Assembly (NCBI GenBank): GCA_018713425.1 | Contig: DVOT01000246.1 | Coordinates: 1-57,688, forward strand | Reading direction: 5' to 3' | DNA from: Candidatus Ornithocaccomicrobium faecavium | GTDB lineage: Bacteria > Bacillota > Clostridia > Christensenellales > Aristaeellaceae | Length of the DNA stretch: 57,688 nucleotides | Part shown: piece by piece, positions 10,569-51,667 of the stretch | How the letters are laid out: each line of letters opens with the position of its first letter | How positions within the stretch are numbered: the first letter of the stretch is position 1 | The notes under the pieces: generated by a model | What the model was told of the DNA's origin: nothing | Databases searched by the model: none | What the model saw: only the letters and a program-made list of their open reading frames with translations | Program-made: the position numbers and the translations under genes

Positions 10569-12139
10569 CTAGTTTTTTGGAACTTTCGGATAGATTTCAA
10601 GCTGCATTTTTTGGCCTAATTCCTTTACGCGCCCGCATTTTTCACTTTTTATGTAAACCACTTTTTCAATCACGCTTTTCAGCATCACATTTTTCCCCGC
10701 TGGCGTTTGAGCTTTTTCGTACAGCGCCAGTACATCGCGTATTTTTGGGGCCTGCATCCTGATCGCTTCATTCATCGGCGGGTTTTTATTTTCCAGCGCC
10801 GCGAGCGCCACCTTTGCAGCTTCCGCGCGTTCGGTTAGGATTTGTTCGCGTTCCAGATATGTTACAGGGCTATAAACACCTTGTTCCAGCAGATCGCGCA
10901 GACGGTTTAACTGATTCCCGATGGTTTCCAGTTCCTTTTCCAGCGCCGCTCGCATCCCGTCGCTTTCATGAACATCCTCGGGCTGCGCTTCAATCCGTTC
11001 TGCATCGATTTCATTAACCCATTGTTTCAATGTTTCCAAAATCGCGGATTCTACCGATTTCAAATATGCGCCGGAAGATTCGCAGTATTGATTCGGGCAC
11101 ATTAGCAAATCGTGATCGCTTGTGTATTTATTCCGCTGCATATGCAGCGACGCACCGCACATGCCGCACACCACGATTCCGGCTAGCGGATTTACCAGCG
11201 GCACTCTTCGCGGATTCCTGCATTTTCTGTTTTGCAAAATTTCCTGCTGAACAGATTCAAACATTTTTTCACTTATAATCGCTTCATGCCGTCCGTCGCA
11301 AATGATTTGCTGCCCGTTGTAGCGGTTAACCCTTTTCCGTTCGCCATTTTTGATTTCCGTTTCCGTGGAATGCCTACCCCACGTGACTTTACCGGTGTAC
11401 ACGGGATTTTTTAGCATCTGCAATATTGTTTCCGCGCCCCACTTTGATTTTTCCCTGGGCCGGATTCCCATTTCCGTTAGGCGCGCGGCGATTTTCGAGC
11501 AGCCCAATTCCTCGCCATTTTCTCCGCGTAAATACCATTCAAAGATCTGCCGCACCACCGCAGCTTCTTCCAGCGCGATTTCAAGCATCCAGCCCTTTTC
11601 GTTTTCCAGCTTTTTCCGCTTGTACCCGTACGGCGGTTTGCTGCCGATATACAACCCTGCCAGCACGCTGGAAATCCTGCCCGTCTGCATGCGGCGCTTG
11701 ATTTGTGCGTATTCCCTGCGCGCGAAAAACAGTTTCAATTCAAAAAATTCCTCGTCGCTGGGGTCGGCGGGGTCGTAGGTTTTGTATGGCGTGATGATTT
11801 TTGTGCCGCTATATGCAATCGTCTGCATGATGATGCCCTGATCGATGCTGTGTCCCCACGCGCCAGCCTATCAACATCCACGCACAGGATTGCGCCATAT
11901 ATGCCAGCTTCTACCGCGCGCAACAGGCGCTGCATTTCTGGCCGCGCAGAAATTGTATCGCCAGATACGATTTCGCGGTAAATATCCTTATCAGCGATTA
12001 CGATTTTCATTTTTTTCGCCAGAGCCATCAACGTATCAAAATGGCGCGACAACGTCGCGCCCTGCCCCATTTTTTCCGCTTCCACATCCGCCCGCGAGCG
12101 GCGGATATACATCGCGCATCGCATTTTGTTCCACCCCAT
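10569..12139 (-). pseudogene. large serine recombinase, interrupted by a frameshift near 11847-11853
   Basis: The N-terminal resolvase domain (YIRRSRADVEAE...VDVDRLARGD) is in one frame. The recombinase and zinc-ribbon domains (IDQGIIMQTIAYSGTKIITP...CGMCGASL) are in another. The frames join if one nucleotide is added in ggggacaCAGCatcgat. Confidence 0.75.
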
Positions 12140-18014: not shown

Positions 18015-18424
18015 GGCGCGAATTCCTCTGCCTCTGCGTCTGCTGCCTCGCTGCCCGGCGCGCTCGGCCAGACGATGCTGAAGGGGAATCCGTCCTGTTC
18101 CGGCAGGTTTCTGAGCGCCTGCCGGTACTGCGCCCATTCGCCGATCAGCGCCTCGCCCAGGGCCTTGAGAAAGCCCAGCCAGGCGGTAAAAGTGCTCCCA
18201 CTCGGCGCAACCAGCCCCAGCCGGTCGAGCGCGACTTCCGCGTCGCTGTCTTTCAGCAGGCGGTTGCGGATGCTGCGCGCCAGCGCGGCGGCGGTCTCTT
18301 CGTCCTGGGCTTCGATCGCCAGGTTCAGCGCCACGCGCTGCACGTCGGGCATTTCGGAGCGCTGCCGGTCGGCGATGGCCTCCATGCGGGCCTGGCGCAG
18401 GCTGTCGTTCGTCGTGATGCTCAT
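18011..18424 (-). CDS. hypothetical phage protein (possible fibre chaperone, XkdW-like position)
   Basis: AAGGAGGG then ATG 18424. The start overlaps the RT stop. Acidic C-terminus. Confidence 0.55.
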   Translation of the reverse strand: MSITTNDSLRQARMEAIADRQRSEMPDVQRVALNLAIEAQDEETAAALARSIRNRLLKDSDAEVALDRLGLVAPSGSTFTAWLGFLKALGEALIGEWAQYRQALRNLPEQDGFPFSIVWPSAPGSEAADAEAEEFAP

Positions 18425-19758
18425 TGTATCCCTCCTTTGATGTCGTCGAGGATCGCCGCGAACCATTTATCCATGCTCCGCAGCAGTTCGCGGGTATTCC
18501 CGCACGCCATGTGCGCGCGCCATCCGGCATAGTGGCGGCGCAGGCTGTCAAGGTCGGCGTTACCCGCTGCCACTCGCCGGCCCATGCGCTTCAGCCGGCG
18601 CTTTTCAGCGGCGGCAATGCCCGGCGCGGCCCGCAAAATCACCTTGCCCGTGGGCGTCAGCCGGAAATGCCAGCGCAGGAAAATGAATCCCTTGCGCAGC
18701 CGGATGAATTGCGATTTCGGGTTTAATTCCAGCCCCAGCGCGTCGAGGCGTTCAGCGATGCCGCGCACGGCGCGCCGCAGTCTTTCGGGATCGGGGTCGT
18801 AAAGGATAAAGTCGTCCATGTAGCGCGCATACACGGCGACGCGCGCTTCTTCCTTTGCGTAGTGATCCACGGCGTTCAGTTGCGCAAGCTGTACCAGTTG
18901 CGATATTTGGCTGCCCAGTCCGATGCCGCGGCCATCGCCATGCAGCGCTTCGTCCATGATGGCGGCCCGATCTTCCTGCGAAAGCCCCGGCGTGCGGCGT
19001 ACTGCCTGCGCGATTTGCCGCTCGCGTTCGCGCAGGATTCCGTCGCGCTCGCCTTCCGGGCGCAGCGGCAGGCTTTCCCGCTCGACGCGGGCGTCGGTGA
19101 TCGCTCTGGCGGCTTTTGCGGCGGCAGGCGTCGGCGCGCCCACGGCGATCAGGCGCGCTTCCCACCATTCTTCGCCGAAACTCTCCACTACGGCGCAGAA
19201 GAACGCCGCCAGCCGGTCGCTGGCCACAGCCTTGCGCAGCGTCGCCTTGGCGACGCTGAAGCGGCTTGTGGGGAAATACTTGCGAACGTCTCCCTTGTAG
19301 ATGAGCGCATCGGCTTGAAACGGGCCGACGTCTTCGACGCGGCAGCCTGCCGCCCGCGCGCGTTCCCGGCGCTGGGCGCGATAGACGCGCCGCAGCCAGT
19401 ATTTCATCCGCTCAATGGCGAAGTCCACGCCTTTGCCGATCTGGCAAGCGCCGTTGTCATGGATGAAGGATCGCGTCAGGATCGGGTAAAGAATATTGTC
19501 GCACGCGCTGCGCTGCGCATGGCGGTCGCGGATGCGCGTTGCCGTGATCGACCGCGGCTTGGGCCGGGTGATGGAAAAGCGCATGTAACGCTGTATTTTG
19601 TAGCGCCCGGCCTTCAGATCGGCGCGCAGACGGGCGCTGTTTTCCAGCCCGTCGCTACGGTAGACGGCGGTTCCGTCCTTCCACATGGTGCCAGCGCAGC
19701 ACTTCTTCAGCGCCCGGTACAGGTTGCGCAGCTTAATCGCTTCCTCGAATTGATCCAT
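18421..19758 (-). CDS. DGR reverse transcriptase
   Basis: GIGLGSQISQL (DGR-type [ILV]GxxxSQ motif), YMDDF catalytic motif, GDVRKYFPT and CQIGKG. Probable start ATG 19758 (MDQFEEAIKLRNLY). The ORF is open to 19881. Confidence 0.85.
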   Translation of the reverse strand: MDQFEEAIKLRNLYRALKKCCAGTMWKDGTAVYRSDGLENSARLRADLKAGRYKIQRYMRFSITRPKPRSITATRIRDRHAQRSACDNILYPILTRSFIHDNGACQIGKGVDFAIERMKYWLRRVYRAQRRERARAAGCRVEDVGPFQADALIYKGDVRKYFPTSRFSVAKATLRKAVASDRLAAFFCAVVESFGEEWWEARLIAVGAPTPAAAKAARAITDARVERESLPLRPEGERDGILRERERQIAQAVRRTPGLSQEDRAAIMDEALHGDGRGIGLGSQISQLVQLAQLNAVDHYAKEEARVAVYARYMDDFILYDPDPERLRRAVRGIAERLDALGLELNPKSQFIRLRKGFIFLRWHFRLTPTGKVILRAAPGIAAAEKRRLKRMGRRVAAGNADLDSLRRHYAGWRAHMACGNTRELLRSMDKWFAAILDDIKGGIQ

Positions 19759-19941
19759 AAAAAGGCCGCCGTGATAGCGGGAACGCGCCTTGCAGCGCGC
19801 CCGCATCGGCGGCAGTTGTTCCCCCTTTTCTCGGGGCAGGGCAAACGCCTCCTTGCACTTCGCGGCGCTGTTTTCGGGCATTGCTCTGCATTTGTCAAAA
19901 GCATCTTGGCGAATGCCTTACTCGAATGACGGGCCATTGAA

Positions 19942-22769: not shown

Positions 22770-25241
22770 CTAGTAGTCGCCGCCGCCCACGCTTTGCACA
22801 AACGCCTGCACGAACAGATTCGCTTCGATGCGCGTCAGCCCGTTGGGCACGATTTCGATTTCATGCCACGTTCCGCGCGTGATCTTGCCGTCGTCGTCCT
22901 TTTCCAGATAGGCAACGATGTCCATCTCGCTGTCCGTCAGCGCGGAAGCGGGCACCACGTTGCCGTCCACCTTCAGCGTCACGCTGCTGGCCGTGTCGCC
23001 CTCGTAGATGCCGTAGACGATCTCATGCGTGTGGTCGGCCAGCGTTAGGTCGTGCGTGTGGGCCGGGATGTTCACACTGTGCGTATGGCTTGGTGTCTCG
23101 AAAACGTGGCTGTGCGCCGGGATGGCGATGTCCTGCGCCGGGATCGTGACCACGCAAACCACGTTGTGCATGTGGCTGAAATTGTGGTAGTGCTGCATGC
23201 TGTGCGTATGCGCGGGAACCGTGTGGGTGTGTTCCATGCCGTGCGTGTGCGCGGCCATGCGGTGGTTGTGTTCGCCGCCCGTCGATGTGCTGCCCCCGCC
23301 CGCGTCGGTCGTATAGATGCGCGAACCGCCGCCGTTGGTGACGGCGTTCCCCGTCAGCCCGCCGCCCGCGGAATTGGTCGTCAGCGATGTGCTGCCGGTA
23401 GTGCCGGTGCCCGAATATCCCGTGTTGCCGCTGATGCTCACATTGTGGGTCGCGTTCGCGCTTACACCGCCCGTTATCGTAGACGTACCCGGATCGCTGA
23501 TGCGGTGATAGTGCCCGTTCGCCAACGAATCGCTGCCGGAAAAACTGTGCCGGTGGCTGGGGCCGCTGTGCGAATGGCTGTCGATGCTGTGCGTATGGCT
23601 GGGGCCGTAATGGAAGTGCCCCATGCCGTGATTGTGGTCGGAAATGGTGTGGCTATGCCCGCCGGCGCTGAGCGTGGTAATCATGCTGTTGCTCGAATCC
23701 GTGGTCAGCAGGCTGCTGTTTCCCGTTTCGCCGCTCCCACCGCTGCCGGTCGTGGACATGGAATCGCCTCCGACGCCCAGCGCGTAGCCGGTGTTGCCGC
23801 TTGTGCTGCCGCTGTGCCCGGACTGTGAAGGCCCCGTCGCCGCCGTGGTGGTGACGACCTTCTGCTCGATCGTCTGCGCATACGCGCCGCCGCTGTTGCT
23901 CGTTCGCTCGCTGCCTCCCCCTGATGAGCTAGTCTGCGTGCTGGCCCCGCCGCTGGACGTGGTGGTGGCCGTCGCGCCGCCCGCTGCCGCGCCCGTCTCA
24001 TAGGCCCGGAAGGCTTCCATCTGCCACGACAGCAGCATTTGATTAATGCGCACGCATCCGCTGGGCACATAAACGCGCATCTTTGCCGGGTGCTGCGCGT
24101 CGGCATTGTCGGCGTACTGCTGACTGTACAGGTTCGTCGCCCCTTGGCTGTACAGTTCGCTGATGCCCATGCGGTCGGCCAGCGTGTTGATGCTGTCCGC
24201 CGCGTCGCGTGGCGCGTTGGCGATGGTGATGTCGATTTCGCCCGGCCTGCCGCGCACGTCGCTTTTGGCGATGGACACGATCCGCGCGTCGAAGTCGATT
24301 CCGTGTTCGCCGTCCAGCACGCGCACCAGCTTGCCGGGCATGTGCTTGTCCCATTCCTGCCCAGTCAGGCGCGTCAGATCGACAGCCGACGCCGTATAGC
24401 TGATATACGGGTTTTTCAGGCGATTCAGCAGCGCGACGCCGCGCGCCTTCAGCGTGGCGGCGTCTTCGATGCGCGTGTCCGCGTAGACGCTGCTCTTCAC
24501 GCCCCACACGTTCTTCGTGTCCGCGTCGATGTAGGGCACGCCGCCGTTGATGTCGCGGATCGTCAGCTGGTTCACGCCCTCGCCGTAGCCCAGCATGTAC
24601 AGCCGCGTCACCAGCGTGCTGGCGTCCATTTCCTTTTCCACCTCGACCATGTTCCGGCGGTAGTGGATGCCGCAGCCGGGCGTGGTGTCCGCGTGCTTCA
24701 GGCTCACCGTCCACGGCGATGCGCTCGTGTCGAACACCCATGTGTATTCGTCCGTCAGCACGTTGCCCAGCGACAGAAGCGCCGAAAGCAGCGACGTGTT
24801 TTCAAACTTGTAGGCAAACTGATCGCTGTATTCGCACTCGCCCAAAACCCAGCGTTCCGTATGCTGCTGGTCGAGAATATACTGGATCACCTGCGCCGTG
24901 GTCACGCCCGGCCCGCCGATCTCATGGTAGCCGAACAGCACGTCGTCCAGCAGCGTGGCCATGACGTGTTCCAAGCTGTACGTCTTCACCCCGCCGGCTG
25001 CCGTCTCTTCGCCGGAAGGCATCCCGATGATGCGATACAGGCCCGTGTCCCGCGCGCCGTCCGGCAGATGCACCAGATTGTGCGCTTGGCACAGGCTGTT
25101 CTTCGGATCACCGCTGGGCAGCGTGAAGGACGCCGTCCACAGGTCATTGTGAACCAGATTGTAGGCGACCTCGCCCGCGTTCTCCAAGACGCCCAGCATC
25201 TCGCCGTCCTGATTGTAGACGGTTACATATTCGCAGTTCAT
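22770..25241 (-). CDS. tail-associated protein (Tal; prophage endopeptidase-tail family N-terminus) with His-rich C-terminal half
   Basis: AGGAGG then ATG 25241. Follows Dit. 17 HxH motifs in two blocks separated by Gly/Ser/Thr linkers. Confidence 0.7.
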   Translation of the reverse strand: MNCEYVTVYNQDGEMLGVLENAGEVAYNLVHNDLWTASFTLPSGDPKNSLCQAHNLVHLPDGARDTGLYRIIGMPSGEETAAGGVKTYSLEHVMATLLDDVLFGYHEIGGPGVTTAQVIQYILDQQHTERWVLGECEYSDQFAYKFENTSLLSALLSLGNVLTDEYTWVFDTSASPWTVSLKHADTTPGCGIHYRRNMVEVEKEMDASTLVTRLYMLGYGEGVNQLTIRDINGGVPYIDADTKNVWGVKSSVYADTRIEDAATLKARGVALLNRLKNPYISYTASAVDLTRLTGQEWDKHMPGKLVRVLDGEHGIDFDARIVSIAKSDVRGRPGEIDITIANAPRDAADSINTLADRMGISELYSQGATNLYSQQYADNADAQHPAKMRVYVPSGCVRINQMLLSWQMEAFRAYETGAAAGGATATTTSSGGASTQTSSSGGGSERTSNSGGAYAQTIEQKVVTTTAATGPSQSGHSGSTSGNTGYALGVGGDSMSTTGSGGSGETGNSSLLTTDSSNSMITTLSAGGHSHTISDHNHGMGHFHYGPSHTHSIDSHSHSGPSHRHSFSGSDSLANGHYHRISDPGTSTITGGVSANATHNVSISGNTGYSGTGTTGSTSLTTNSAGGGLTGNAVTNGGGSRIYTTDAGGGSTSTGGEHNHRMAAHTHGMEHTHTVPAHTHSMQHYHNFSHMHNVVCVVTIPAQDIAIPAHSHVFETPSHTHSVNIPAHTHDLTLADHTHEIVYGIYEGDTASSVTLKVDGNVVPASALTDSEMDIVAYLEKDDDGKITRGTWHEIEIVPNGLTRIEANLFVQAFVQSVGGGDY

Positions 25242-25253
25242 GTTTGCCGCCTC

Positions 25254-25526
25254 CTAGCGGCGCGACGGCCGTTCCAACACGCCGTCCGGCGGCGCGTCCA
25301 CAGGCTCCACATGGCCGCCGTCAATGATCTCCGCTATGGCGTATAGTTCGTTGGCCTGCCGCGCGGACTGCACCGCCAGCACGGCCATGGCGCAGCCGCC
25401 GGGCGTGTTCCACGCGCATTCGGACAGGCAACGCGCGCCGCGCATGGGGCAGTACGGTGTCGTTGGCCTTGCCGGTCTTGCCGGCGGGTCATGCCGCTTG
25501 CCTAGCTGTGTTTTGGATGGTAGCAT
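25254..25526 (-). CDS. hypothetical phage protein (Cys-containing, 90 aa)
   Basis: GGGAGG lies 8 nt upstream of ATG 25526. Sits between Dit and Tal. Confidence 0.4.
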   Translation of the reverse strand: MLPSKTQLGKRHDPPARPARPTTPYCPMRGARCLSECAWNTPGGCAMAVLAVQSARQANELYAIAEIIDGGHVEPVDAPPDGVLERPSRR

Positions 25527-25528
25527 GC

Positions 25529-26320
25529 TCAAAACCTCCCTCTCGCCTTGATGGTGATCTTTGCGCCCTTTGTGCCGCTGCCGTAGGCCAGCGTCGCGCT
25601 GATGCTCTGCGGCCCGTGCCGGGCGGTCAGATAGTCGAAGCGCGCCGCATAGGGCAGCGCGTTTTCGCCGTCTGAAAATGCCGCTCCGATGGGCGGCTCC
25701 ATGTCGATGAGCAGCGCATCGCCCGACGCGATGTTCATGCCGGAAAGCTGCACGGCGTTTCCGCCTGCCGTCAGCGTTACGCCGGTGATCGGCGCTGCGC
25801 CTGTGTTCAGCACTTCCGCGCGGATCGGCGCGGGCGCGCCGGTCGCCAGCACGAAGTTGACCTGCGCGCTGGTGCCGCTGGTCGTCGCGCTTGCCGTCGT
25901 TTCGTCGAGCGCGTAGGCATAGGGCTGCGCCGTGAAGGTCACGTCCAGCCCGCCGTCGATCCAGTCCGAAAAGCCCCAGTTCAGTTCGTCGTCCACGCTT
26001 GCCATGTAATAGCGCAGCGGCTCATAGTCGAATATAAGCCGCTGCCGCCCGTTCGTCAGCCATGCCGCGATGCGCCGAAGCTGCTGCTGCGCCGCCGCCT
26101 GCGAAGGCGGATCGCGCAGGAAGAACAGCGTGCCGTCAAATTCCAGCGTTTCGGGCAGGTCGCCGGGCATCAGGATCGTGCCCGGCGTGCCGGAAATATC
26201 GTATTCGTTCCGACGGATTTTGGGTGCGATCGTGTGCCCTTTGTTTTCCACATAGATGCAGCCAAAGTCCCGCAGGCAGTGCAGTCCGCCGAAGGAAAAG
26301 TTGATCTCGTTCAGGTTCAA
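25529..26320 (-). CDS. distal tail protein (Dit, siphovirus tail component)
   Basis: Position after the tape measure. The N-terminus (NFSFGGLHCLRDFG...ISGTPG) is typical of the Sipho_tail family. Start is probably TTG 26320 after GGGGAG. The ORF is open to 26338. Confidence 0.7.
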   Translation of the reverse strand: MNLNEINFSFGGLHCLRDFGCIYVENKGHTIAPKIRRNEYDISGTPGTILMPGDLPETLEFDGTLFFLRDPPSQAAAQQQLRRIAAWLTNGRQRLIFDYEPLRYYMASVDDELNWGFSDWIDGGLDVTFTAQPYAYALDETTASATTSGTSAQVNFVLATGAPAPIRAEVLNTGAAPITGVTLTAGGNAVQLSGMNIASGDALLIDMEPPIGAAFSDGENALPYAARFDYLTARHGPQSISATLAYGSGTKGAKITIKARGRF

Positions 26321-26330
26321 GGCTATCTCC

Positions 26331-26379
26331 CCAATCAAAAGGCACCCTGCCCTTTCGGGTGGGTGCCTTGGTCGGTTTG
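26331..26379 (-). repeat. hairpin-plus-RBS cassette, copy 1
   Basis: ~50 bp, ~90% identical to 38076-38125. On the minus strand: GCACCCACCC-GAAA-GGGCAGGGTGC, a T-run, then TTGATTGG + SD. Confidence 0.7.
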
Positions 26380-26383
26380 CTGA

Positions 26384-26608
26384 TTATGCGCTGGCGCGCA
26401 TCTGCATCAAGGTGCTGGTGGCTTCGTCCAGTTCCGCGCGGGTGTTCTGCAAGGCCTTGCGGATCATGCCCAGCGCGTCGTCGATGTATTCGCCGTTCGC
26501 CATGTGCTGCGCGCCCATCTGCATGATCTCGATGCAGGCGCACAGCCCCTTCAGGGTGTTGTCTACGTCTTCCAGCGCGTTGACCGCGCGCATACGGATT
26601 TCATTCAT
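26384..26608 (-). CDS. 74-aa acidic helical protein of unknown function (cassette effector)
   Basis: AAGGAGG 7 nt before ATG 26608. No motif I recognise. Confidence 0.6.
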   Translation of the reverse strand: MNEIRMRAVNALEDVDNTLKGLCACIEIMQMGAQHMANGEYIDDALGMIRKALQNTRAELDEATSTLMQMRASA

Positions 26609-26635
26609 CGTTCTGCCTCCTTCTGGCTTTCGGGG

Positions 26636-26664
26636 TTGACCTTTCGGGGCAGGTATGATAAAAT
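26636..26664 (+). promoter_or_regulatory. strong plus-strand promoter inside the minus-strand cassette
   Basis: TTGACC (26636-26641), 17-nt spacer, TGaTAAAAT extended -10 (26656-26664). Confidence 0.55.
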
Positions 26665-26670
26665 TTACTT

Positions 26671-26741
26671 GCCGGTCGAAAGGTCGGTGCCTGGGGTTTC
26701 GGTGTTGCTTGCTGGGGCAACCGAAACCCTATTTTTCTTTT
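26671..26741 (+). ncRNA. candidate ~70-nt antisense sRNA
   Basis: Predicted TSS ~26671. Terminator stem gggtttcggtgttgc / gcaaccgaaaccc (26694-26729), then TATTTTTCTTTT. No ORF. Antisense to the RHH 3' end and the intercistronic region. Confidence 0.4.
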
Positions 26742-26896
26742 AGCCCCGCATAGACTTGTTCCACGCCGCGGCGCAAGACCTCTGCTTTGGACAGGTTGAG
26801 CCGTTCCATGCAATAGTTTAACTTCCGAACGGTCTCTGCGTCCATGCGTGCGCTTACTTGCGTCCCTTTGGGATTTTCTATCTTGGGGCGTCCCAT
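26729..26896 (-). CDS. ribbon-helix-helix (Arc/CopG-type) DNA-binding protein
   Basis: MGRPKIENPKGTQVSARMDAETVRKLNYCMERLNLSKAEVLRRGVE matches the RHH beta-alpha-alpha pattern. Start ambiguous: in-frame GTG 26917, ATC or ATT nearer the GAGGTG SD. Confidence 0.65.
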   Translation of the reverse strand: MGRPKIENPKGTQVSARMDAETVRKLNYCMERLNLSKAEVLRRGVEQVYAGLKEK

Positions 26897-26920
26897 TTTG
26901 GCGCTAATGATTAACACCTC

Positions 26921-26963
26921 ACTTTCTGACTGTCATTATATAACATGACAGTCAGAAAGTCAA
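26921..26963 (-). promoter_or_regulatory. consensus promoter embedded in a 16-bp-arm inverted repeat (operator)
   Basis: Minus strand TTGACT (26963-26958), 17-nt spacer, TATAAT (26940-26935). Arms actttctgactgtcat (26921-26936) and atgacagtcagaaagt (26945-26960). Confidence 0.65.
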
Positions 26964-26973
26964 CCCCCAATTT

Positions 26974-26999
26974 CAAAAGCGTCTGCGCAGACGCTTTTG
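26974..26999. repeat. palindrome caaaagcgtctgcgcagacgcttttg, copy A
   Basis: Perfect palindrome AAAAGCGTCTGC|GCAGACGCTTTT, 10 nt after the tape-measure stop. Confidence 0.9.
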
Positions 27000-27009
27000 C
27001 GCCGCTTCA

Positions 27010-30000
27010 TCAGGCCAGCACCATGCGCGCGGCCCTGCCCGTGGCGCTCTTGGCGGCGCGCCGGTAGGTGGCCCGGCTCACGACCGGCTCAATGGTTTCG
27101 CCCACCGTCCGCCCGTCCATCGTAATGACAGTGCGGTCAATGCCCTTGCGAATAAAGCTGTTGGCCACGGCGTCGCCCAGCCGGTCGTAGTCGATCTCCG
27201 GCGCGGAAATGCTCGGGTAGGCCCGGCCGCCCTGCGCCGTCTCTTCGGCGGCCATGGCGCTCAGGCGGTTTGCGGCGCGAAGCACCTGATCCATGCCGCG
27301 CTCGATGCCTTCGGCAAAGCCTTGGTCGTAATATTCGCCGATTTCGGCCATGCGCTTGGACGGCGACGCGATGCCCAGCTCGCGCTTGGCCGCGTTGTAG
27401 GCGCTGCGCGCCGCCGATCTGGCCGCGCTCTGGATGGTGCTGGAGCCGTTGCGGATGCCGCGCGCCACGCCCTGCGCGATGGCGGTGCCGATCGACGTAA
27501 ATTTGCTGCCGCCGCTGCCCACAGCGCCCCACAGCGCGGAAGACGCGCTGCTGGCCAGGCTGCGGGCGGCGCTGGAAACGCTGCCGCTCTGGCCGCTGAT
27601 GCCTGCTTGAATGCCCTGCGCCAGCGCCGCGCCGATGCTGCGACCGTTGGTTGCGCTCAATTCGCGCTTGGCCGCGTCATGCGCGCTCTTGGTGGTCTGC
27701 GTCGTCGTGCTCACAAGCGCGCTTTTCGCATTTTGCACGGCCTGCCGCAGCCCGGTCATAAAGTCTTCGCCGATCTCGCCGCCGGCCGTGTTGTTCAGAA
27801 TTTCGGCTGCGGCCGCCAGCGCGTCTTCGGCAACGACGTCCACGGCGGCGTTGACGGTTTCGCTGCCGCCCGTGATGCCGGTGGCCATTTCTTCCACAGC
27901 CGCTTCGTAGGCGGCGTTTGCCACGGTGGTGATGGCCGTCTGCACGGCTTCAGTGTTGGAATTGTTGGAGCTGATGCCGTCGGCGATGGCTTTGCAGACA
28001 GCCGCGCCGATGTCCTTAAACTTCGCAGCCGTTTCTTCGCCCCAGCCCATAAAGCCGGTGCCTGACACGCCGAAAGCCGCGTTCAGCGCCGTCGCTACGG
28101 CGTTGAATACCGCGGATGCCCCGCTGCTGAATGCACTTTCCGTAACAGCATTCAAGCCGTCGTTCAGTCCCTTGGCGACGCCTTCGCCGAACGCCTTGGT
28201 CTTGGAAGAAGCGCCGCCGTCGTCGGTAATGCCCAGCGCTGCCTTCAAGCCGGCAAGCATCTTCTCGCCCAAGTCCGAACCGGCCGTTTCGACCGTGGCT
28301 TGTTTGGAATTTGCGCCGTCTGCCAAACTCTGGCCTACGGTTTCACCAGCTTTTTTCGCGTCGGCGTCTTCGTCGGATTCCCATAGGCCGCTCAACCAGT
28401 CGCCTAAGCCGCCGATTGCATCGCCGACGCCCTCCAAAAGGTTGCCGATGCCGTCGCCGATACTGCCAAGGCCATCGACAATAGAATTGATGGCGTTCAT
28501 GCCGGTGTTCAGGCCGTTCGCTATGGTCGAACCGATGCCGTCCCAGTCGATGCCGTCAATGGCCGCCTGCGCTGCCGTAAAGCCCGCGGAGAGAAATTCT
28601 CCACTAACGTCTACAAGATCGTTGAAAGCGCTGCCGATCGTCTCGCCGATGCCCGCCCAGTCGATGGCTTCGATGGTGCTTTGCGCTGCCTCAAAGCCGC
28701 CGGAAAGGAACGCGCCCGTAACGTCCACGATGCCGTTGAAGGCGTCGCCGATGGTGGAGCCAAGGGAAGTCCAGTCGATGGCCTCAATGGCTGCTTTGCC
28801 TGCCTCGAAGCCGCCGGAAAGGAATGCACCCGTAACGTCCACGATGCCGTTAAAAGCGTTGCCGATGGTGGTGCCAAGGGATGTCCAGTCGATGGCTTCA
28901 ATGGCTGCCTTGCCTGCCTCGAAGCCGCCGGAAAGGAACGCGCCCGTAACGTCTACAATGCCGTTGAAGGCGTTGCCGATGGTGGTGCCAAGCGTTCCCC
29001 AGTCTATGAGCGCGATTGCGTTCCTGCCCGCCTCAAACGCGCCGGACAGGAACGTCCCTGCGGTATCAATAACGCCTGTAACGCCGCTTAGCACAGCGCT
29101 GCCGACGCTGCCCCAGTCGATAGATGTTACTGCATCCTTGCCGGCAGAAAAAAGCCCGGACAGGAACCCGCCGCCTGTGTCGATCGCGCTGGTGACGCCG
29201 GAAAGAATATTGCTGCCGATGCTGTCATATTCCACGCCAGCAGCCGCGTCCCGCCCTCCTGTGAACAGACTGGATAGCCAATTCCCCGCCGTGTCCAGAA
29301 GCCCGGTCGCACCGCTCATGATCGCGGAACCGATGCTGGAAAAGTCGATTCCGGCCACTTCGTCACGGCCCCCAGTGAATAGCCCTATCAGGCTTTCGCC
29401 AATGCCGCCCAGCCCGGAAAGGATGGAGTTAAGCAGCGTGCCCCCCAGTTCTCCCCAGTCTACATTCGTCAGGCCGTCCCAAATAGCACTGATGATTTCA
29501 GGCAGCCGTTCCAGCAGCTTGGGGATGGCCTCGACCAGACCCGCGGCAAGCTGCACCATCATTTCCGCCGCTGCCGGGATCAATTCGGGCAGCGCGCTGA
29601 TAATGCCGTCTATCAGCCCCAGTAAAATATCTACGCCGGCATTCAGCAGTGTTGGAAGATTGTCGGTCAGGAAGTCTGCCACATTCGCCACGATGTTCGT
29701 GGCCAGTTCAGCCAACGGTGCGGCATTTGCTGCTATGGAGTTCACTACGCTTCGCAAAAGTCCCATAGCGGCGGGCAGGATCGCGTCCACCAGTGCCGGC
29801 AGCGCCTCCACCACTACGGCCACGGCTGCGTCCAGCATTTCCGTAATGGTGTCCATGTTCTCGCTCAAAAGCGTTTCGATGGTGCCGATGCCCTCCATCA
29901 GGGCATCGGCGACGGCCTCGCCGATGATCTTGACGTCTTCCGGCTGGAAGCCGTCGGCCAAAGCGTCGTCGATGGTGGAAAGCGCATCCACCAGCAGGCT

Positions 30001-31419
30001 TTGCATGTCCTGCGCCAGCGGCAGAAACTCGTTCACGATCTTGCGGCGCACGCCTTCCAGCGCGCTGGACGCATCGTTATAGCGCACGTCATTGATCTGC
30101 GACAGCGCATCGGTGGACAGGTCGCCGCCCTCCGCGATGCTGGCAAGGATCGGAAGCGCCTGTTCGCCCAAGTCCTCGAATTGCGTGCCGAACAGCGCCA
30201 CGGCCAGCTGGTTGCGTTCCAGCGGGTCTTCCACGGCTTGCAGCGCGTTCACCACTTGCAGGAAGGCGGCGCGCGCCTGCGGCCCGCCTTCGGCCAGTTC
30301 TGCGCTCACATAGGATGCGCGCAGGCCCAGCGCCTCGAAGGCTTCCTTGGTCGTGTCGCTGCCGTCGATTGCGCGGATCGAAAATTCCTTGACCGCGTCG
30401 CCCACTTTGTCGATCTGGAAAACGCCGTTCTCCGCGCCCGCGATGAGCGTCTGCATCATGTCGTCGGCGGTCAAGCCCATTTCGGCGTACTTCGGCGCGT
30501 ACTCGCTCAATACGTCCAGCAGATCGCCGTTGCGGTTCGCGCCGTTCTGTGCGCCCACGGCGATCAGGTTATAAGCCTGCTGCGCCGAAATGCCGAATTT
30601 GTTCATCAGGGCGGATGCCGCGCGGCTGCTCTCGGAAAAGTCCATGCCGAACGTGTCGCGCAGCAGATAGCCGCTTTCGGTGGCCTTGCGCAGTTCGTCG
30701 CCCATCAGGCCGGTGTTCGTGCGTGTGGTGGCCAGCGCTTCGTTGACGTCGGAAATGCTGTCCCCGAAATTGTTGCGGTACACCTCTTGCGCGATGCCGC
30801 CCAATTCTTCGAGTTCCTGCCCCGTCGCGCCCGTCTGCGCGGACAGCTGGTTCGTCGCCTGCTGATAGTCCGTGCCCAGCTGCACGACCTCTTTTGCGCC
30901 CGCCAGCGCCGCAGCGGCCAGCGCTGCGATGGCAGCAGCGGCAGCTTCCAGCCCGGCCTTCATCGCGCCGCCCGCGATGTCGCCGGCCGCGCTCATGGCG
31001 TCGGCCATGCCGTCGGTGGCGCTGTCGGCCTGCTGGGTCGCGTCGGCCAGCGCCGCCATGTTTTGGTCGTTTTCCTTGATTTCGTTCCCGACCTTGTTCA
31101 TCGCGTTGGCTGCGCGATTCAGGGCGATTTGCAGGTTTTCCGCCTGCTGGCTGTTCTCGCCGTACTCTGCCTTCGCCTTGTTCAGCTGTTCGGCGATCAG
31201 CTTCACCTTTTCGGCGTGTGCATCGTACACGCTTTGCAGGCTGCTGGCCTTGGCCCGCATGGCCTCCATGCTGTCGGCCTGGTCGCCGAAGGCGCTGTTT
31301 GTCGCGGCCATTTCGGTGTTCAGCATCGTCAGCCGCCGGCCGATGTCTTGCAGTGCTTTTTTGTATTCCTTGTCGCCCAGCACGCTGACTCTTGTGCTGA
31401 TGCCTTCGCTGCTTGGCAT
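27010..31419 (-). CDS. tail tape measure protein
   Basis: 1469 aa, Ala/Gly-rich and helical. N-terminal coiled coil, internal 35-aa repeats. Position after the chaperone genes. Confidence 0.9.
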   Translation of the reverse strand: MPSSEGISTRVSVLGDKEYKKALQDIGRRLTMLNTEMAATNSAFGDQADSMEAMRAKASSLQSVYDAHAEKVKLIAEQLNKAKAEYGENSQQAENLQIALNRAANAMNKVGNEIKENDQNMAALADATQQADSATDGMADAMSAAGDIAGGAMKAGLEAAAAAIAALAAAALAGAKEVVQLGTDYQQATNQLSAQTGATGQELEELGGIAQEVYRNNFGDSISDVNEALATTRTNTGLMGDELRKATESGYLLRDTFGMDFSESSRAASALMNKFGISAQQAYNLIAVGAQNGANRNGDLLDVLSEYAPKYAEMGLTADDMMQTLIAGAENGVFQIDKVGDAVKEFSIRAIDGSDTTKEAFEALGLRASYVSAELAEGGPQARAAFLQVVNALQAVEDPLERNQLAVALFGTQFEDLGEQALPILASIAEGGDLSTDALSQINDVRYNDASSALEGVRRKIVNEFLPLAQDMQSLLVDALSTIDDALADGFQPEDVKIIGEAVADALMEGIGTIETLLSENMDTITEMLDAAVAVVVEALPALVDAILPAAMGLLRSVVNSIAANAAPLAELATNIVANVADFLTDNLPTLLNAGVDILLGLIDGIISALPELIPAAAEMMVQLAAGLVEAIPKLLERLPEIISAIWDGLTNVDWGELGGTLLNSILSGLGGIGESLIGLFTGGRDEVAGIDFSSIGSAIMSGATGLLDTAGNWLSSLFTGGRDAAAGVEYDSIGSNILSGVTSAIDTGGGFLSGLFSAGKDAVTSIDWGSVGSAVLSGVTGVIDTAGTFLSGAFEAGRNAIALIDWGTLGTTIGNAFNGIVDVTGAFLSGGFEAGKAAIEAIDWTSLGTTIGNAFNGIVDVTGAFLSGGFEAGKAAIEAIDWTSLGSTIGDAFNGIVDVTGAFLSGGFEAAQSTIEAIDWAGIGETIGSAFNDLVDVSGEFLSAGFTAAQAAIDGIDWDGIGSTIANGLNTGMNAINSIVDGLGSIGDGIGNLLEGVGDAIGGLGDWLSGLWESDEDADAKKAGETVGQSLADGANSKQATVETAGSDLGEKMLAGLKAALGITDDGGASSKTKAFGEGVAKGLNDGLNAVTESAFSSGASAVFNAVATALNAAFGVSGTGFMGWGEETAAKFKDIGAAVCKAIADGISSNNSNTEAVQTAITTVANAAYEAAVEEMATGITGGSETVNAAVDVVAEDALAAAAEILNNTAGGEIGEDFMTGLRQAVQNAKSALVSTTTQTTKSAHDAAKRELSATNGRSIGAALAQGIQAGISGQSGSVSSAARSLASSASSALWGAVGSGGSKFTSIGTAIAQGVARGIRNGSSTIQSAARSAARSAYNAAKRELGIASPSKRMAEIGEYYDQGFAEGIERGMDQVLRAANRLSAMAAEETAQGGRAYPSISAPEIDYDRLGDAVANSFIRKGIDRTVITMDGRTVGETIEPVVSRATYRRAAKSATGRAARMVLA
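28520..29390 (-). repeat. in-frame ~105-bp (35-aa) tandem repeats inside the tape measure gene
   Basis: About 9 units of the form xIDWxxxGxxIxxxxxGxxDxxGxFLSGxFxAxxxA. Two adjacent units are nearly identical. Confidence 0.8.
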
Positions 31420-38065: not shown

Positions 38066-38075
38066 GGCGTTTCCT

Positions 38076-38125
38076 CCAATCAAAAAGCACCCGTGCCCTT
38101 TCGGGTGGGTGCTGTGGTCGGTCTG
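38076..38125 (-). repeat. hairpin-plus-RBS cassette, copy 2
   Basis: Matches 26331-26379. Here it abuts palindrome copy B directly. Confidence 0.7.
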
Positions 38126-38128
38126 TTT

Positions 38129-38154
38129 CAAAAGCGTCTGCGCAGACGCTTTTG
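38129..38154. repeat. palindrome caaaagcgtctgcgcagacgcttttg, copy B
   Basis: Identical 26-mer, 9 nt after the TerL stop. Confidence 0.9.
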
Positions 38155-38163
38155 CCTTGGGGC

Positions 38164-39906
38164 TTATAGCTTCGGTTTCCGGCGGCGATTTTGGATGTCG
38201 ATGACGCGCACCGCGGGCTTGTGGTAGACCTCGCCCGCCGGGTTCTTCTGCATGTTGATGCAGTGCGCGTCCAGCCAGGCCATGAAGCCGTCGATTTTGC
38301 GGAATTTGTTCCGCTTCGTCGGCATCCAGTTCTGCTTGTCGGCGTGCCTGCGCTCGCCGGATATGCGCACGTTGTCCGTGTACCACAACAGCATCGGGTC
38401 GCGGTTGCTCACCACGCGGCCCGCCAGCAGCAGTTCCTTGATATCCTTCATCGGATCGTTCAGCGTGACCGGCCCCTGCCGCACCACTTCGCAGGCGAAG
38501 CCGCGGCCTTCGAGCATTTGCCGCAGCCGCGTGGCGTTGGCCGGGTCGTAGCCGATGGCCACGATTTCATACTTCTTTGCCTGTTCGCAGAACCATTCGT
38601 ACACGTCTTCCTGGCGAACGTATTCGCCTTCGACGATGGTCAGATGGCCGCGCATGGCCAGGCCGTAGTAGTCGATCTTTTCCTGATCTAGCTCGACCTT
38701 CCTGCGCGGCACCCATGTGTGCAAGAGCACAAACACGCGCCCGTCGTCCAGCGGAAATTCCAGCGCCGCCGCCGTGAAGTCTTCGCGCGTGGACAGGTCG
38801 AATCCGCCGTAGCAGCGCCGCCCCAGCAGGCTTTCCATGTCGATCATGGCGTCGTTGCGCTGGTTGACCTCCGGCTGCACGAATTGCATGTCGTCCGTGT
38901 TGACCGTGATGTTTAACTGCTTGCAGATGAAGTCCGCCCGCTCGCTGGGGATCATTTTCGCCCGCTGCCATTGTTCCTTCAGTTCGTCCATGTGCAGCAG
39001 CACGCCCAGCGAAGGGTTGGCCTTGATCCACTTGCCGCTGTCGTCCGGGTCGTCGCCTTCGTCCATTTCGGCGATGTAGCCAAACATGCGATCCGCCACG
39101 TCTGTGGCCAGCTTGCCTTCCATCGCGTCTGTGAACAGGCCGTAAAAATAGGCCAAAGGCCCGTCGATGACGTTGCCCATGGTCGTGATGTAGATGATGA
39201 GCGGCTGCGACCGCTTGACCACCTTGCGCTTGATGATGTTCGTCAGCTTGAAGTCGCGGTATTCGTGGATTTCGTCGAAGATCGCCATGTGCGGGTTCAG
39301 GCCGTCCAGGCGCTTGCTGTCGCTGGCGCGCGCCTTGATGCTGGCGCTCATGGCGTCGTAGTATACGCCGTCGCGCAGCGGCCGAAAGCGCGGGGCCAGA
39401 TAGCGGCTGGCCTTGATCTGTTCGCGGCATTCGTTGAACACGATGCCCGCCTGCTCCTTCGAGTTGGCCAGCAGGTAGATGTCCGCGCCGCGCTCGCCGT
39501 CCTTGCATGCGCCGTAGGTGGCGTTGCCGGCCAGCATGGTGCTTTTGCCGTTGCCGGTGCCCACCACGATCAGCGCCTCGCGGTACCGGCGCAGGCCCGT
39601 CTTTTTGTCCACCCACCCGTACAAGTTGCCTTCGACGAAGCACTGCCAGGGCAGCAGCGTCATGCGGTCGTAGTTGCCCTTTGTCGGGGCCAGAAACTTT
39701 TCGATGAACGCGCAGGGCCGCTCGGCCTTCGCTTCGTCGAAGCGCCACGGGTAGGCGGGGTCGTTTTGCCTATCCAAATCGTGCAGAAAGCGGCGGCAGG
39801 CCAGCTTTACTTTGTTGCATGCGAGTATTCGGCCTTCGTCCACGTCGTGGGCGTAGCCGTAACATCGCTCAATGGCCGTCCGTCGCTCAGAAGTCGGCGA
39901 ATTCAT
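38164..39906 (-). CDS. terL: terminase large subunit
   Basis: 580 aa. Walker A-like VVGTGNGKST and a C-terminal nuclease region. Follows the small subunit. Confidence 0.9.
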   Translation of the reverse strand: MNSPTSERRTAIERCYGYAHDVDEGRILACNKVKLACRRFLHDLDRQNDPAYPWRFDEAKAERPCAFIEKFLAPTKGNYDRMTLLPWQCFVEGNLYGWVDKKTGLRRYREALIVVGTGNGKSTMLAGNATYGACKDGERGADIYLLANSKEQAGIVFNECREQIKASRYLAPRFRPLRDGVYYDAMSASIKARASDSKRLDGLNPHMAIFDEIHEYRDFKLTNIIKRKVVKRSQPLIIYITTMGNVIDGPLAYFYGLFTDAMEGKLATDVADRMFGYIAEMDEGDDPDDSGKWIKANPSLGVLLHMDELKEQWQRAKMIPSERADFICKQLNITVNTDDMQFVQPEVNQRNDAMIDMESLLGRRCYGGFDLSTREDFTAAALEFPLDDGRVFVLLHTWVPRRKVELDQEKIDYYGLAMRGHLTIVEGEYVRQEDVYEWFCEQAKKYEIVAIGYDPANATRLRQMLEGRGFACEVVRQGPVTLNDPMKDIKELLLAGRVVSNRDPMLLWYTDNVRISGERRHADKQNWMPTKRNKFRKIDGFMAWLDAHCINMQKNPAGEVYHKPAVRVIDIQNRRRKPKL

Positions 39907-41255: not shown

Positions 41256-41282
41256 CAAAAGCGTCTGCGCAGACGCTTTTTG
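41256..41282. repeat. palindrome copy C (one extra T)
   Basis: caaaagcgtctgcgcagacgctttttg. Lies 5 nt after the SSB stop codon and 5 nt before the next RBS. Confidence 0.9.
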
Positions 41283-43892: not shown

Positions 43893-43918
43893 CAAAAGCG
43901 TCTGCGCAGACGCTTTTG
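43893..43918. repeat. palindrome caaaagcgtctgcgcagacgcttttg, copy D
   Basis: Identical 26-mer lying directly between a stop codon (43919) and the next RBS. Confidence 0.9.
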
Positions 43919-46862: not shown

Positions 46863-47198
46863 CTATTCGCCGTCCGTTGTTTTCTTCATGCGCCGCAGGA
46901 TCGCGGCGCGCACGTCGTCCAGATCGAAATAATAGCGCTGTCCCACTTTGCTGTATGGAATCCATCCCTCACGGACGCCCCGCCGGATCGCCGAAGCGGT
47001 CAGCCCGGTTTCCGCGCTCACCGCGTCGATCATAACGCCATCCGGCTTCGATAACACGTCGCGCGCTTCGTCGATGTCCACCAGCATTCGATTGCCCAGC
47101 AACATGACGGATAGCTCGCCGCATCGCACGGCGCGGCGGATGATGGATTCCTTGATGTCCAGTACCGCCGCCGCTTCTCGGATGGTCTTCAGGTTCAC
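46863..47198 (-). CDS. tandem excisionase-type (MerR-like) HTH protein
   Basis: Two copies of the pattern (TIREAAAVLDIKESIIRRAVRCGEL and AVSAETGLTASAIRRGVREGWIPY). Confidence 0.55.
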   Translation of the reverse strand: MNLKTIREAAAVLDIKESIIRRAVRCGELSVMLLGNRMLVDIDEARDVLSKPDGVMIDAVSAETGLTASAIRRGVREGWIPYSKVGQRYYFDLDDVRAAILRRMKKTTDGE

Positions 47199-47201
47199 GG
47201 G

Positions 47202-47513
47202 TCAGCCCCCCAGTTCTGCCTTTACCAGTCGCAGATTTTCCTTGCAGTATCGGATTGCCTTGTTATAGGGCATAGTGCCGACGCATTCGTCGCGCCCGTT
47301 GATTGTCTTGCACACGATCGCTTTGCGCAGCTTTGCGTCAAACTCTATGTATGCCATGCTGGGCAAAGGCGGATTGGCGTAATTCGCACTGCGCAATACG
47401 GCCTGCGCCCGCCATGCGCGCGCCAGATAATCCATGCGCGGATTTCCGGCTGGATGCAGTGCGTACAGTGCGCGCAGCTGATCCGGCGTGTCGATCTGGT
47501 ACCGCTTAATCAT
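47202..47513 (-). CDS. hypothetical early protein
   Basis: 103-aa ORF whose start overlaps the stop region of the upstream gene. Confidence 0.45.
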   Translation of the reverse strand: MIKRYQIDTPDQLRALYALHPAGNPRMDYLARAWRAQAVLRSANYANPPLPSMAYIEFDAKLRKAIVCKTINGRDECVGTMPYNKAIRYCKENLRLVKAELGG

Positions 47514-50005: not shown

Positions 50006-50180
50006 CCTTACACTTTTTTGGGGTTGCCGTTTACAGATGACGGCCCCCGATTACGCATGGACTGTAACGCCGAAAAGCCTTGTGCCACAAGGCTTTTCGC
50101 GCGTTTTTGGGCGCACTTACAGTTTTACAGCAAAAAATACACATACCCCCACCATGGAATACTTTTCGGAGGTGCGACGC

Positions 50181-51579: not shown

Positions 51580-51630
51580 ATATTTTGGTCGAGGTGACAG
51601 GATTTGAACCTGCGACCTTTTGGTCCCGAA
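51578..51630. repeat. right att site (inside the intact tRNA-Pro)
   Basis: 53/53 identity with 15312-15364. Confidence 0.9.
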
Positions 51631-51662: not shown

Positions 51663-51667
51663 AAAAA

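Follow-up and report, generated by a model that had tools for sequence, protein, structure and literature searches.

A ribbon-helix-helix repressor, a predicted antisense RNA and a 74-residue protein form a candidate antirepressor cassette of the P22 immI kind in a Clostridia prophage

The ant moron of phage P22 (the immI region) lies within the late morphogenetic operon and comprises mnt, arc, the sar RNA and ant: Arc, a ribbon-helix-helix (RHH) protein of ~53 amino acids (aa), is encoded by the first gene, the promoter of which it represses, a ~69-nucleotide (nt) cis-antisense RNA originates where arc meets ant, double negative control is imposed on the gene downstream, and the region turns over fast among related phages (PMC2629481). 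Here we analyse a cassette of ~590 base pairs (bp) on the minus strand of a 57,688-nt stretch of DNA from Candidatus Ornithocaccomicrobium faecavium (contig DVOT01000246.1; the whole stretch is referred to as the window), where it lies between the tape-measure and distal-tail (Dit) genes of a prophage and encodes a 55-aa RHH protein, a predicted antisense RNA and a 74-aa protein, the effector or cargo. As judged from sequence, the regulatory architecture is very probably as set out below, and the balance tips slightly towards an autonomous unit of the P22 ant moron kind with the 74-aa protein as a small antirepressor-type switch protein; that this protein functions as an antirepressor, a point argued through guilt by association, has just short of an even chance in our estimation. 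The likeness to P22 consists in a moron within a late operon, an RHH gene in first position with a predicted operator over its own promoter, and an antisense RNA predicted at the gene junction. However, whilst sar covers the ant ribosome-binding site, the antisense promoter here lies upstream of that site and only the intercistronic leader would be paired; there is no divergent second repressor such as Mnt, the upstream side having no divergent open reading frame (ORF) but only a hairpin (hairpin A) and the last part of the tape-measure gene; the similarity of the RHH protein to Arc does not detectably exceed that to other RHH proteins; in place of the ~300-aa Ant there is a 74-aa helical hairpin; and the cassette belongs to a siphovirus, with hosts that are Gram-positive gut anaerobes.

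The CopG protein of plasmid pMV158 is a 45-aa RHH protein, and in plasmid R1 the antisense target is found upstream of the effector ribosome-binding site. In both plasmids (CopG, RNAII and repB in pMV158; CopB, CopA and repA in R1) the repressor is cotranscribed with the effector and an intergenic countertranscript provides the second control (PMC4485353, PMC5717011). The cassette resembles them in the expected cotranscription of repressor and effector and in the predicted intergenic antisense RNA, and R1 also in the placement of the antisense target; in addition, the RHH protein of one effector-family member shows a weak match to the Pfam family RepB-RCR_reg. On the other hand, the 74-aa protein is no replication initiator, the unit is a phage moron and not a replicon, and no leader peptide like tap of R1 is conserved in the spacer: an open frame does cross the spacer in the window, ending at ATGAATGA, but it is lost in the related locus L004 (related loci are given L numbers throughout).

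Two further groups of systems bear on the comparison. Aca14, reported in 2026, is an RHH anti-CRISPR-associated (Aca) protein with inverted repeats over the -10 element (PMC13551039). By its description, the anti-CRISPR (Acr)-Aca14 system shares with the cassette an RHH autorepressor, an inverted repeat over -10, a strong promoter and small accessory phage genes, whereas in the cassette the regulator comes first and not last, an antisense RNA is predicted and no known anti-defence gene is present. Small antirepressors (those of Gifsy phages, and AimX of arbitrium phages) inactivate non-cleavable repressors by binding (PMC3121763; bioRxiv 10.1101/2025.11.23.689978). These are, again by description, short proteins under tight transcriptional control, as the effector would be, but their control is exerted by LexA or AimR and not by an RHH protein and an antisense RNA.

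Layout of the cassette and its predicted control elements

An earlier note on this DNA, made from the letters alone, had outlined a self-contained cassette at 26383-26973 with a consensus promoter inside a palindrome with 16-bp arms, a 55-aa RHH protein of MGRPK type, a 120-nt intercistronic region with an opposing promoter and terminator, and a 74-aa acidic helical protein with a strong ribosome-binding site. All of these elements are present there, with the cassette reading on the minus strand (Table 1). The distance of ~590 bp that it had given between the tape-measure and Dit genes is right for the cassette proper but not for the gap, since ~670-690 bp separate the tape-measure stop from the Dit start. 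With its own predicted promoter and a hairpin at both borders, the cassette also fits the description as self-contained.

The sense and antisense promoters are the two highest-scoring promoter-like sites in the surrounding 3.5 kb (25000-28500; nine sites found against 0.9 expected), with the sense promoter ranking best. Its -10 element is enclosed and its -35 element abutted by the two perfect operator arms (26921-26936 and 26945-26960), giving a 40-bp palindrome that spans from -35 to the +1 region and whose half-site is unique within the window; -35 and -10 are kept in every cassette variant. The protein encoded behind this promoter begins with MGRPK from its first ATG (26729-26896) and matches phrog_876 ('transcriptional repressor') with an expectation value (E) of 3.6e-13, and Pfam RHH_1 weakly (E 0.017). 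A profile built from 11 members of the RHH family was compared with solved structures and gave SvtR (2kel) as best match (E 5e-4), with RHH antitoxins, ParG and CopG also matching (ParG and CopG more weakly) in a range extending from E 5e-4 to 0.3; Arc and Mnt were not among the matches at E up to 10. These matches, together with a GRP motif and a strand-helix-helix pattern, support the RHH assignment. There is no C-terminal extension past the RHH fold: all 11 variants are 53-61 aa long and end within ~10 residues of helix B. From the sequence and from the co-variation of operator and RHH described below, we infer that the protein is an autorepressor that binds the palindrome over its own promoter.

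The translation start of the RHH gene is unusual in this lineage. A GAGGTG ribosome-binding site is located at 26920-26915, and at 7 nt from it the window and L001 exhibit ATT (26908-26906), where other variants have ATG, GTG or TTG at 5-7 nt; the first ATG (26896) is 18 nt away. Either ATT serves as a weak start or the ATG is used without a nearby ribosome-binding site, which suggests that RHH output is unusually low in this lineage.

The spacer between the RHH and effector genes (26609-26728) is exactly 120 nt long and harbours the opposing promoter and terminator on the plus strand, with the antisense promoter sitting between the antisense RNA gene and the effector ribosome-binding site. 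In the predicted RNA, a 5' stem-loop (26671-26688) bearing a GAAA tetraloop is succeeded by a terminator stem-loop (26692-26731; hairpin 26694-26703/26720-26729) and a U-tract, TATTTTTCTTTT following the hairpin on the plus strand only; its fold reaches -31 kcal/mol (z -2.8). A search of 25500-27800 against Rfam at E up to 10 returned no family, with chance microRNA and snoRNA matches on the palindrome only. As the earlier note had held, the RNA leaves the effector ribosome-binding site (26616-26620) uncovered. The design is maintained in all ten sequence-distinct variants: each has an antisense promoter of the form TTGNNN-17-TGNTANNNT between the RNA-coding stretch and the cargo ribosome-binding site, and each antisense RNA is 71-81 nt long with two hairpins despite divergent sequence. 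The 5' stem-loop measures 6-9 bp and is closed by a GAAA, GCGA or UUCG tetraloop in eight of the ten, whilst the outer helix of the terminator stem spans 11-21 bp and differs entirely in sequence from one RHH type to another, with 5-9 U after the stem (fold z -3.1 to -5.7). Because MAFFT did not bring the antisense RNAs into register, stems were compared position by position by script and not by a covariation tool.

Read on the sense strand, the terminator hairpin is followed by only 0-2 U in the ten variants, and with no sense-strand U-tract, read-through from the RHH gene into the effector gene is expected. The effector leader is 93% identical between the window and L004 (75/81 positions) next to a coding region with a synonymous divergence (dS) of 0.59, and is thus more conserved than synonymous sites; its sense fold has a z of -4.5. 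It contains the complement of the antisense 5' stem-loop and, in addition, a CUGCCCC stretch able to pair with the ribosome-binding site, the counterpart of which in other variants is CCUCCU and which is tied up by the long hairpin of the leader. In constrained folds in which the antisense target was made unavailable, the CUGCCCC stretch becomes paired to the ribosome-binding site, and between this site and the AUG the mean unpaired probability drops in silico in eight of nine variants; for the window, the values are 0.57 before and 0.38 after. Two other candidates for control within the spacer were discarded, namely a sense-strand promoter (none from the scan, and a poor best hand-fitted -35) and antisense-induced transcription attenuation (the sense strand lacks a hairpin with U-run upstream of the ribosome-binding site).

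A mechanism can be proposed from these elements. The sigma-70-type strong promoter would drive a two-gene transcript, RHH and then the 74-aa protein, and the RHH protein would shut the operon by binding the 40-bp palindrome on its own promoter. The convergent extended -10 promoter would make a ~72-nt RNA perfectly complementary to the intercistronic leader; the RHH gene would not be covered, because the RNA ends at the terminator overlapping the RHH stop codon, and since the RNA lies upstream of the effector ribosome-binding site it could not act in the manner of P22 sar. It would rather lower effector output relative to RHH, for which three routes can be envisaged: duplex-directed cleavage may part the cistrons and, in Firmicutes, leave the effector half open to 5'-3' decay, with the RHH half shielded by its 3' hairpin; the convergent promoters may interfere; or the freed leader stretch may pair with the ribosome-binding site. 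Duplex cleavage and promoter interference appear at least as likely as the last of these. When the DNA enters a cell without cognate RHH protein a short burst of effector would result, as opposed to tight silence in the lysogen, and the 74-aa protein would act on a phage repressor by binding. Frequent replacement of RHH and operator would allow the phage to escape silencing by the RHH protein of a resident prophage.

Table 1. Coordinates of the cassette elements, of the copies of hairpin A and of the adjoining tail genes in the window.
Feature	Position	Strand	Details
Hairpin A	26974-26999		26-nt perfect palindrome CAAAAGCGTCTGCGCAGACGCTTTTG; directly after tape-measure stop; left border
Sense promoter	26963-26935	-	TTGACT-17-TATAAT; 11/12 consensus matches; -35 26963-26958, -10 26940-26935
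Predicted operator	26921-26960		perfect 16-nt inverted arms, 8 nt apart, across core promoter
RHH repressor gene	26729-26908	-	55 aa from ATG 26896; 59 aa if ATT 26908
Predicted cis-antisense RNA	26671-26742	+	~72 nt; two stem-loops and U-tract
Antisense promoter	26636-26664	+	TTGACC-17-TG-n-TAAAAT (extended -10); 10/12 matches
Conserved effector mRNA leader	26609-26689	-	includes GGAGG 26620-26616
Effector gene (cargo)	26384-26608	-	74 aa; helical hairpin
Hairpin B	26339-26369	-	terminator-like stem AAGGCACCC...GGGTGCCTT, then TTTTGATT; right border, abuts Dit start
Hairpin A copies	26974-26999, 38129-38154, 41256-41281, 43893-43918		identical palindrome
Tape measure	27010-31419	-	PhageMin_Tail 1.5e-26
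Dit	25529-26338	-	phrog_33 2e-23
Tal	22770-25241	-	Prophage_tail 3e-29

Insertion, exchange and distribution of the cassette

The cassette is an inserted moron, because the tape-measure gene abuts Dit in most relatives: among the 11 informative Dit relatives from IMG/VR, the tape-measure stop is at most 25 nt from Dit in nine and a cassette is found in the other two, in agreement with the claim of the earlier note that the two genes are normally adjacent. Furthermore, the effector is found behind an RHH gene of this kind in seven of its eight context types, at four genome positions: between tape measure and Dit (window, L001, L011, L036); between Dit and Tal (L003-L010, L023), once directly after a PhdYefM-ParE pair; after the tail chaperone and beside HicAB (L012); and between an HTH-M78 gene and HNH/terminase genes (L013-L020, L027). 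In each of these positions a 55-61 aa RHH gene lies ~110-170 nt upstream of the effector. The exception is L021, 85-95% identical to the packaging region of the window, in which a lone effector paralogue stands between TerL and portal, after an A-like hairpin and without an RHH or antisense unit. At the corresponding junction of the window (38070-38165, minus strand) only hairpins A and B are present, side by side (38087-38154), which looks like an empty or vacated cassette site. The second copy of hairpin B (38087-38112) stands 16 nt from the neighbouring copy of hairpin A. Of the latter, a palindrome of 25-26 nt (AAAAGCGTCTGCGCAGACGCTTTTG), the window has four intergenic copies, after the tape measure, after TerL, between SSB and sigma-70-region-4-like genes, and after a 952-aa primase-like gene, where chance would predict no such repeats; it may act in termination or RNA processing, be bound by a protein, or serve as a linker through which morons are exchanged by recombination.

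Variation in arrangement is also observed. In some phages two RHH units stand in tandem before one effector (L015 4440-5390; L013), the first of them retaining the antisense RNA part but no cargo, and in others two complete cassettes flank a HigB-like/HTH-M78 gene pair (L016 2639-2866 and 5001-5387; L027).

Comparison of close relatives shows that the RHH unit is exchanged as a block. On both flanks L011 shares 97% identity with the window, and the two effectors are 99% identical, with the stretch corresponding to 26690-26968 replaced in L011 by a non-homologous promoter-operator-RHH-terminator unit, and in L004 a 77%-identical effector with a 93%-identical leader is placed behind a third RHH type. 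The effector (77-99% identity) is hence paired with at least three RHH types, those of L004 and L011 being ~30% identical to the RHH protein of the window. An inverted repeat flanks the -10 element in every variant: its position is kept, whilst the sequence of the inner arm is private to each RHH. The boundary of the swap falls between the two antisense RNA hairpins, which implies that the 3' half of the RNA travels with the RHH gene and the 5' half and its promoter with the cargo. Since the RHH protein is swapped independently of the effector, with the operator changing along, and has no tail past its fold, it would be a regulator and not an antitoxin. It is tempting, though somewhat less probable than not, to see here a large undescribed class of modular phage switch cassettes in Gram-positive gut bacteria, built of two halves that recombine inside the antisense RNA gene, with the 74-aa protein as a new minimal antirepressor overriding or inducing unmatched resident prophages. 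One half would comprise RHH, private operator and terminator and the other the antisense 5' hairpin, its promoter and the cargo, so that recombination would reshuffle regulatory specificity against cargo.

Divergence within the RHH alignment precluded a peptide-pattern scan, and further cassettes were sought with a DNA pattern of the promoter, TTGACWTT-N26-40-AAAGTGAGGTG, behind which an MSPRTGRPK-type RHH gene completes the signature. The promoter signature is present in at least 120 IMG/VR viral loci. The counts that follow hold among the matches listed, in which 99 loci encode an MSPRTGRPK-type RHH protein right after the ribosome-binding site. In the 98 RHH loci with at least 300 nt downstream, which represent 88 distinct RHH proteins, the antisense promoter pattern was found in 75, as compared to two on the sense strand and a mean of 1.1 in shuffles; a hairpin with U-run follows in 67 of the 75, and the RNAs so delimited have a median of 70 nt. 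Among the 92 cassettes with identified cargo, 53 contain antirepressor genes of Rha, Bro-N or AntA type, either as a large first cargo (34 cassettes) or as a similar large protein behind a small first cargo (19 cassettes). Cargo identity was assigned by Pfam on one representative per main cluster: Phage_pRha 1e-28 (with ORF6N), Bro-N 5e-24, and AntA 3e-16 with ORF6C 2e-25, while one 151-aa first cargo is a Peptidase_M78 (2e-8). The remaining cargos are varied small proteins, mostly helical. A 219-aa 'gene' following the cassette in L026 was set aside as an arginine-rich junk frame. The RHH proteins paired with the 74-aa effector are 46-68% identical to RHH proteins that accompany the large cargos in the Bro-N/Rha/AntA-type clusters.

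Comparable arrangements are found in cultured phages. In C. difficile phage CDKM15 the tape measure, a SHOCT gene, a CRISPR array, a CopG gene and a Bro-N protein gene follow each other in this order, and in Streptococcus phages MismyG and Javan452 CopG is followed by an 82-91 aa protein and an annotated antirepressor, within the head module. In all three, inspection of the spacers by eye lets a convergent promoter and a terminator in antisense orientation be made out; owing to a differing -35 or TG spacing, the strict regular expression passed over their promoters. The parallel with P22 immI, which the earlier note had drawn, gains substance from these cases: CopG-type RHH genes precede annotated antirepressors in the cultured phages, and cassettes of the same architecture carry Phage_pRha, Bro-N, AntA/ORF6C or Peptidase_M78 cargo. 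In the case of CDKM15 (L161, NC_048643, 17943-19716), the CRISPR array stands immediately upstream of the CopG-Bro-N cassette, after the tape measure, indicating that the island behind the tape-measure gene is a recurrent site for conflict-related cargo.

In the literature, we found no description of RHH/antisense/antirepressor units outside P22. The family of RHH/antisense/cargo cassettes is thus apparently widespread and undescribed, whilst being of a kind that, by its sequence organisation, would already be known from the P22 ant moron. The majority of gut bacteria harbour prophages, and many of the repressors of prophages in anaerobic Firmicutes are, like the one in the window, without a recognisable self-cleaving domain. 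The cassette offers a concrete candidate device for induction and anti-immunity, made of a repressor, a conserved ~70-nt antisense RNA and usually an antirepressor cargo, in at least 120 viral contigs as well as in cultured Clostridioides difficile and Streptococcus phages. The 40-year-old P22 immI paradigm would then reach across phyla, with a different RNA mechanism, and a conserved small RNA of phages, for which Rfam has no family, would come with it. The simple DNA signature could serve to find new lysis-lysogeny effectors, the 74-aa family included, and the promoter-operator-RHH units (at least 88 distinct RHH proteins) would be naturally orthogonal parts that could become genetic tools for Clostridia.

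The 74-aa protein and the readings of its function

The effector gene has a GGAGG site 7 nt ahead of its ATG, and its product has an isoelectric point (pI) of 4.7. An AlphaFold model (predicted local distance difference test score, pLDDT, 85) shows two long helices at residues 3-33 and 39-73, which confirms the acidic helical protein with strong ribosome-binding site described from the letters. The statement that it belongs to no nameable family stands as well: searches of Pfam, PHROG, NCBIfam and PADLOC gave no significant match, and Pfam and PHROG searches with 16 family members gave nothing significant either; phrog_6301, of unknown function, matches five effector family members (best E 0.003). 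A profile search of PDB sequences retrieved designed coiled coils and chemoreceptor hairpins only, and Foldseek against PDB and BFVD yielded generic helical hairpins, none below E 0.09. No homologue was found in GTDB at one genome per species, nor in GenBank phages even at E 10. A word-indexed search found two effector clusters only, whilst a full hidden Markov model (HMM) search of 1.84 billion representatives gave 16 hits, 15 of which form the effector family, a rare one, including the cluster of the window; the sixteenth, a repeat protein, was rejected as spurious. Most of the clusters (13, at 50% identity) contain proteins of 72-77 aa. Residues D16, L19, R57, A58 and D61 are invariant; a metal site at a Cys-x-Cys...His motif was considered and dismissed, as its residues are not conserved across the family. 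The ratio of nonsynonymous to synonymous substitution (dN/dS) is 0.05-0.20 against three relatives, and the effector is therefore a real gene under purifying selection. In one subfamily (L012 5231-5323; L036 2354-2446) a conserved 30-aa ORF overlaps the effector stop (ATGA), with the consensus MKKL.KKARRLL.WLTSGYDT..ALQ.GIN; it is absent from the window.

The reading as a small antirepressor-type switch protein appears the most likely one because the protein occupies the antirepressor slot of the cassette in a prophage whose repressor shows no self-cleaving domain: the CI-like repressor (48760-49272) contains an HTH_3 domain and no self-cleaving peptidase domain was detected in it, which fits a prophage that needs an antirepressor for induction. 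There is also precedent, in that small antirepressors have been described (PMC3121763; bioRxiv 10.1101/2025.11.23.689978). Several observations weigh against this reading. Homology and fold searches tie the protein to no antirepressor, and Pfam searches revealed no Bro-N, ANT/KilAC, AntA or Rha domain in it; many small proteins of unrelated kinds, a hydrophobic 54-aa peptide among them, likewise occupy the cargo slot; and no canonical antirepressor is found downstream in the window. The small slot proteins may be accessories and not antirepressors, given that 19 cassettes have a canonical antirepressor behind a small first cargo. Moreover, the names Rha, Bro-N and AntA are annotations, few members having been tested, the RHH start codon of the window is non-canonical, and the modelled influence of the antisense RNA on accessibility of the ribosome-binding site is modest.

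The point about small slot proteins leads to an alternative in which the small hairpin modulates a Bro-N/KilAC antirepressor as chaperone, inhibitor or co-factor and is an orphan in the window, acting elsewhere or doing little. In 19 of the 58 small first cargos among the matches listed, an antirepressor-like gene follows at once, often with stop/start overlap, the Streptococcus phages have the order CopG-small protein-KilAC, and the effector profile weakly matches the 59-aa first cargos before Bro-N in L100 and L134 (E ~1e-3 in a set of 94). We nevertheless consider an accessory partner improbable, as an antirepressor-like gene is downstream in none of the eight effector context types, the effector is under purifying selection on its own, and the profile match is weak. 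An anti-defence operon, where the 74-aa protein would inhibit host immunity in an anti-CRISPR-like manner, the RHH protein would be an Aca-like shut-off and the antisense RNA would sharpen it, is similarly unlikely: the homologous cassettes (again among the matches listed) carry mostly antirepressor-family cargo and not known Acr genes, the regulator-first order is opposite to that of acr-aca operons, no match to the known anti-defence or defence families searched was obtained, and acr operons are without reported antisense RNA (0 mentions in PMC13551039). It has in its favour that the effector is small, acidic, rare and fast-moving, that it occurs in accessory islands beside toxin-antitoxin genes, that its promoter is close to consensus and carries an inverted repeat across -10, as the RHH protein Aca14 has repeats over -10 too (PMC13551039), and that swapped regulator specificity would aid escape from 'anti-anti-defence'.

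Of still lower probability is a toxin-antitoxin or abortive infection module, in which a 74-aa toxin would be checked by the RHH protein (type II) or the antisense RNA (type I-like) and freed when transcription or RNA stability is disturbed. The earlier note had offered an RHH-antitoxin/toxin pair as an alternative, and two genes with RHH first, neighbouring PhdYefM-ParE, HicAB and HigB-like modules, and the type I logic of an unstable antisense RNA against a protein-coding mRNA would speak for it. It is disfavoured by the minimal RHH protein, a DNA-binding fold only with no toxin-binding tail, by the exchange of this protein for ~30%-identical types with the effector kept at 77-99% identity, and by the orphan effector in L021 without RHH or antisense unit; the 120-nt spacer would also be unusual for type II, and the acidic, soluble, helical effector does not resemble known toxins, with searches of PADLOC, Pfam and NCBIfam giving no match. 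Finally, a tail-assembly or structural component merely encoded between tape measure and Dit would accord with the tail-module position seen in three phage lineages, but the protein is absent from nine of the 11 Dit relatives, is encoded elsewhere before terminase genes or between TerL and portal, and has its own predicted promoter, repressor and terminators. Given the distribution of the effector we exclude a structural role, to which we attach almost no probability.

Prophage setting and further observations in the window

The window is a bacterial chromosome segment with an integrated siphovirus-type prophage, the structural genes of which are on the minus strand. Host genes are found on the left side (EAL and GGDEF proteins, a family 2 glycosidase) and on the right side (a radical-SAM enzyme, ABC permeases), and the lysogeny module comprises the CI-like repressor gene and a tyrosine integrase gene (50037-51449) that adjoins tRNA-Pro and tRNA-Thr (51586-51743). 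Cro-like HTH proteins are encoded at 47506-47997 and 46863-47198. No close relative of the whole prophage was found among GenBank phages. Besides the tyrosine integrase at the right end, a large serine recombinase is encoded at 10569-11828, near the left side of the phage region, and may be part of a second mobile element. A 486-aa ORF (18421-19881, minus strand) shows a weak match to the reverse-transcriptase family RVT_1 (E 1.4e-4, under the Pfam cut-off); sited downstream of the tail-fibre region, it may for this reason be a component of a diversity-generating retroelement. In its C-terminal half, Tal has long tracts of Gly/Ser/Thr as well as recurring histidine-rich motifs (HSHTISDHNHGMGHFHYGPSHTHS...), and the tape-measure gene exhibits internal repeats of ~110-115 bp, ~80% alike, around 28530-29050.

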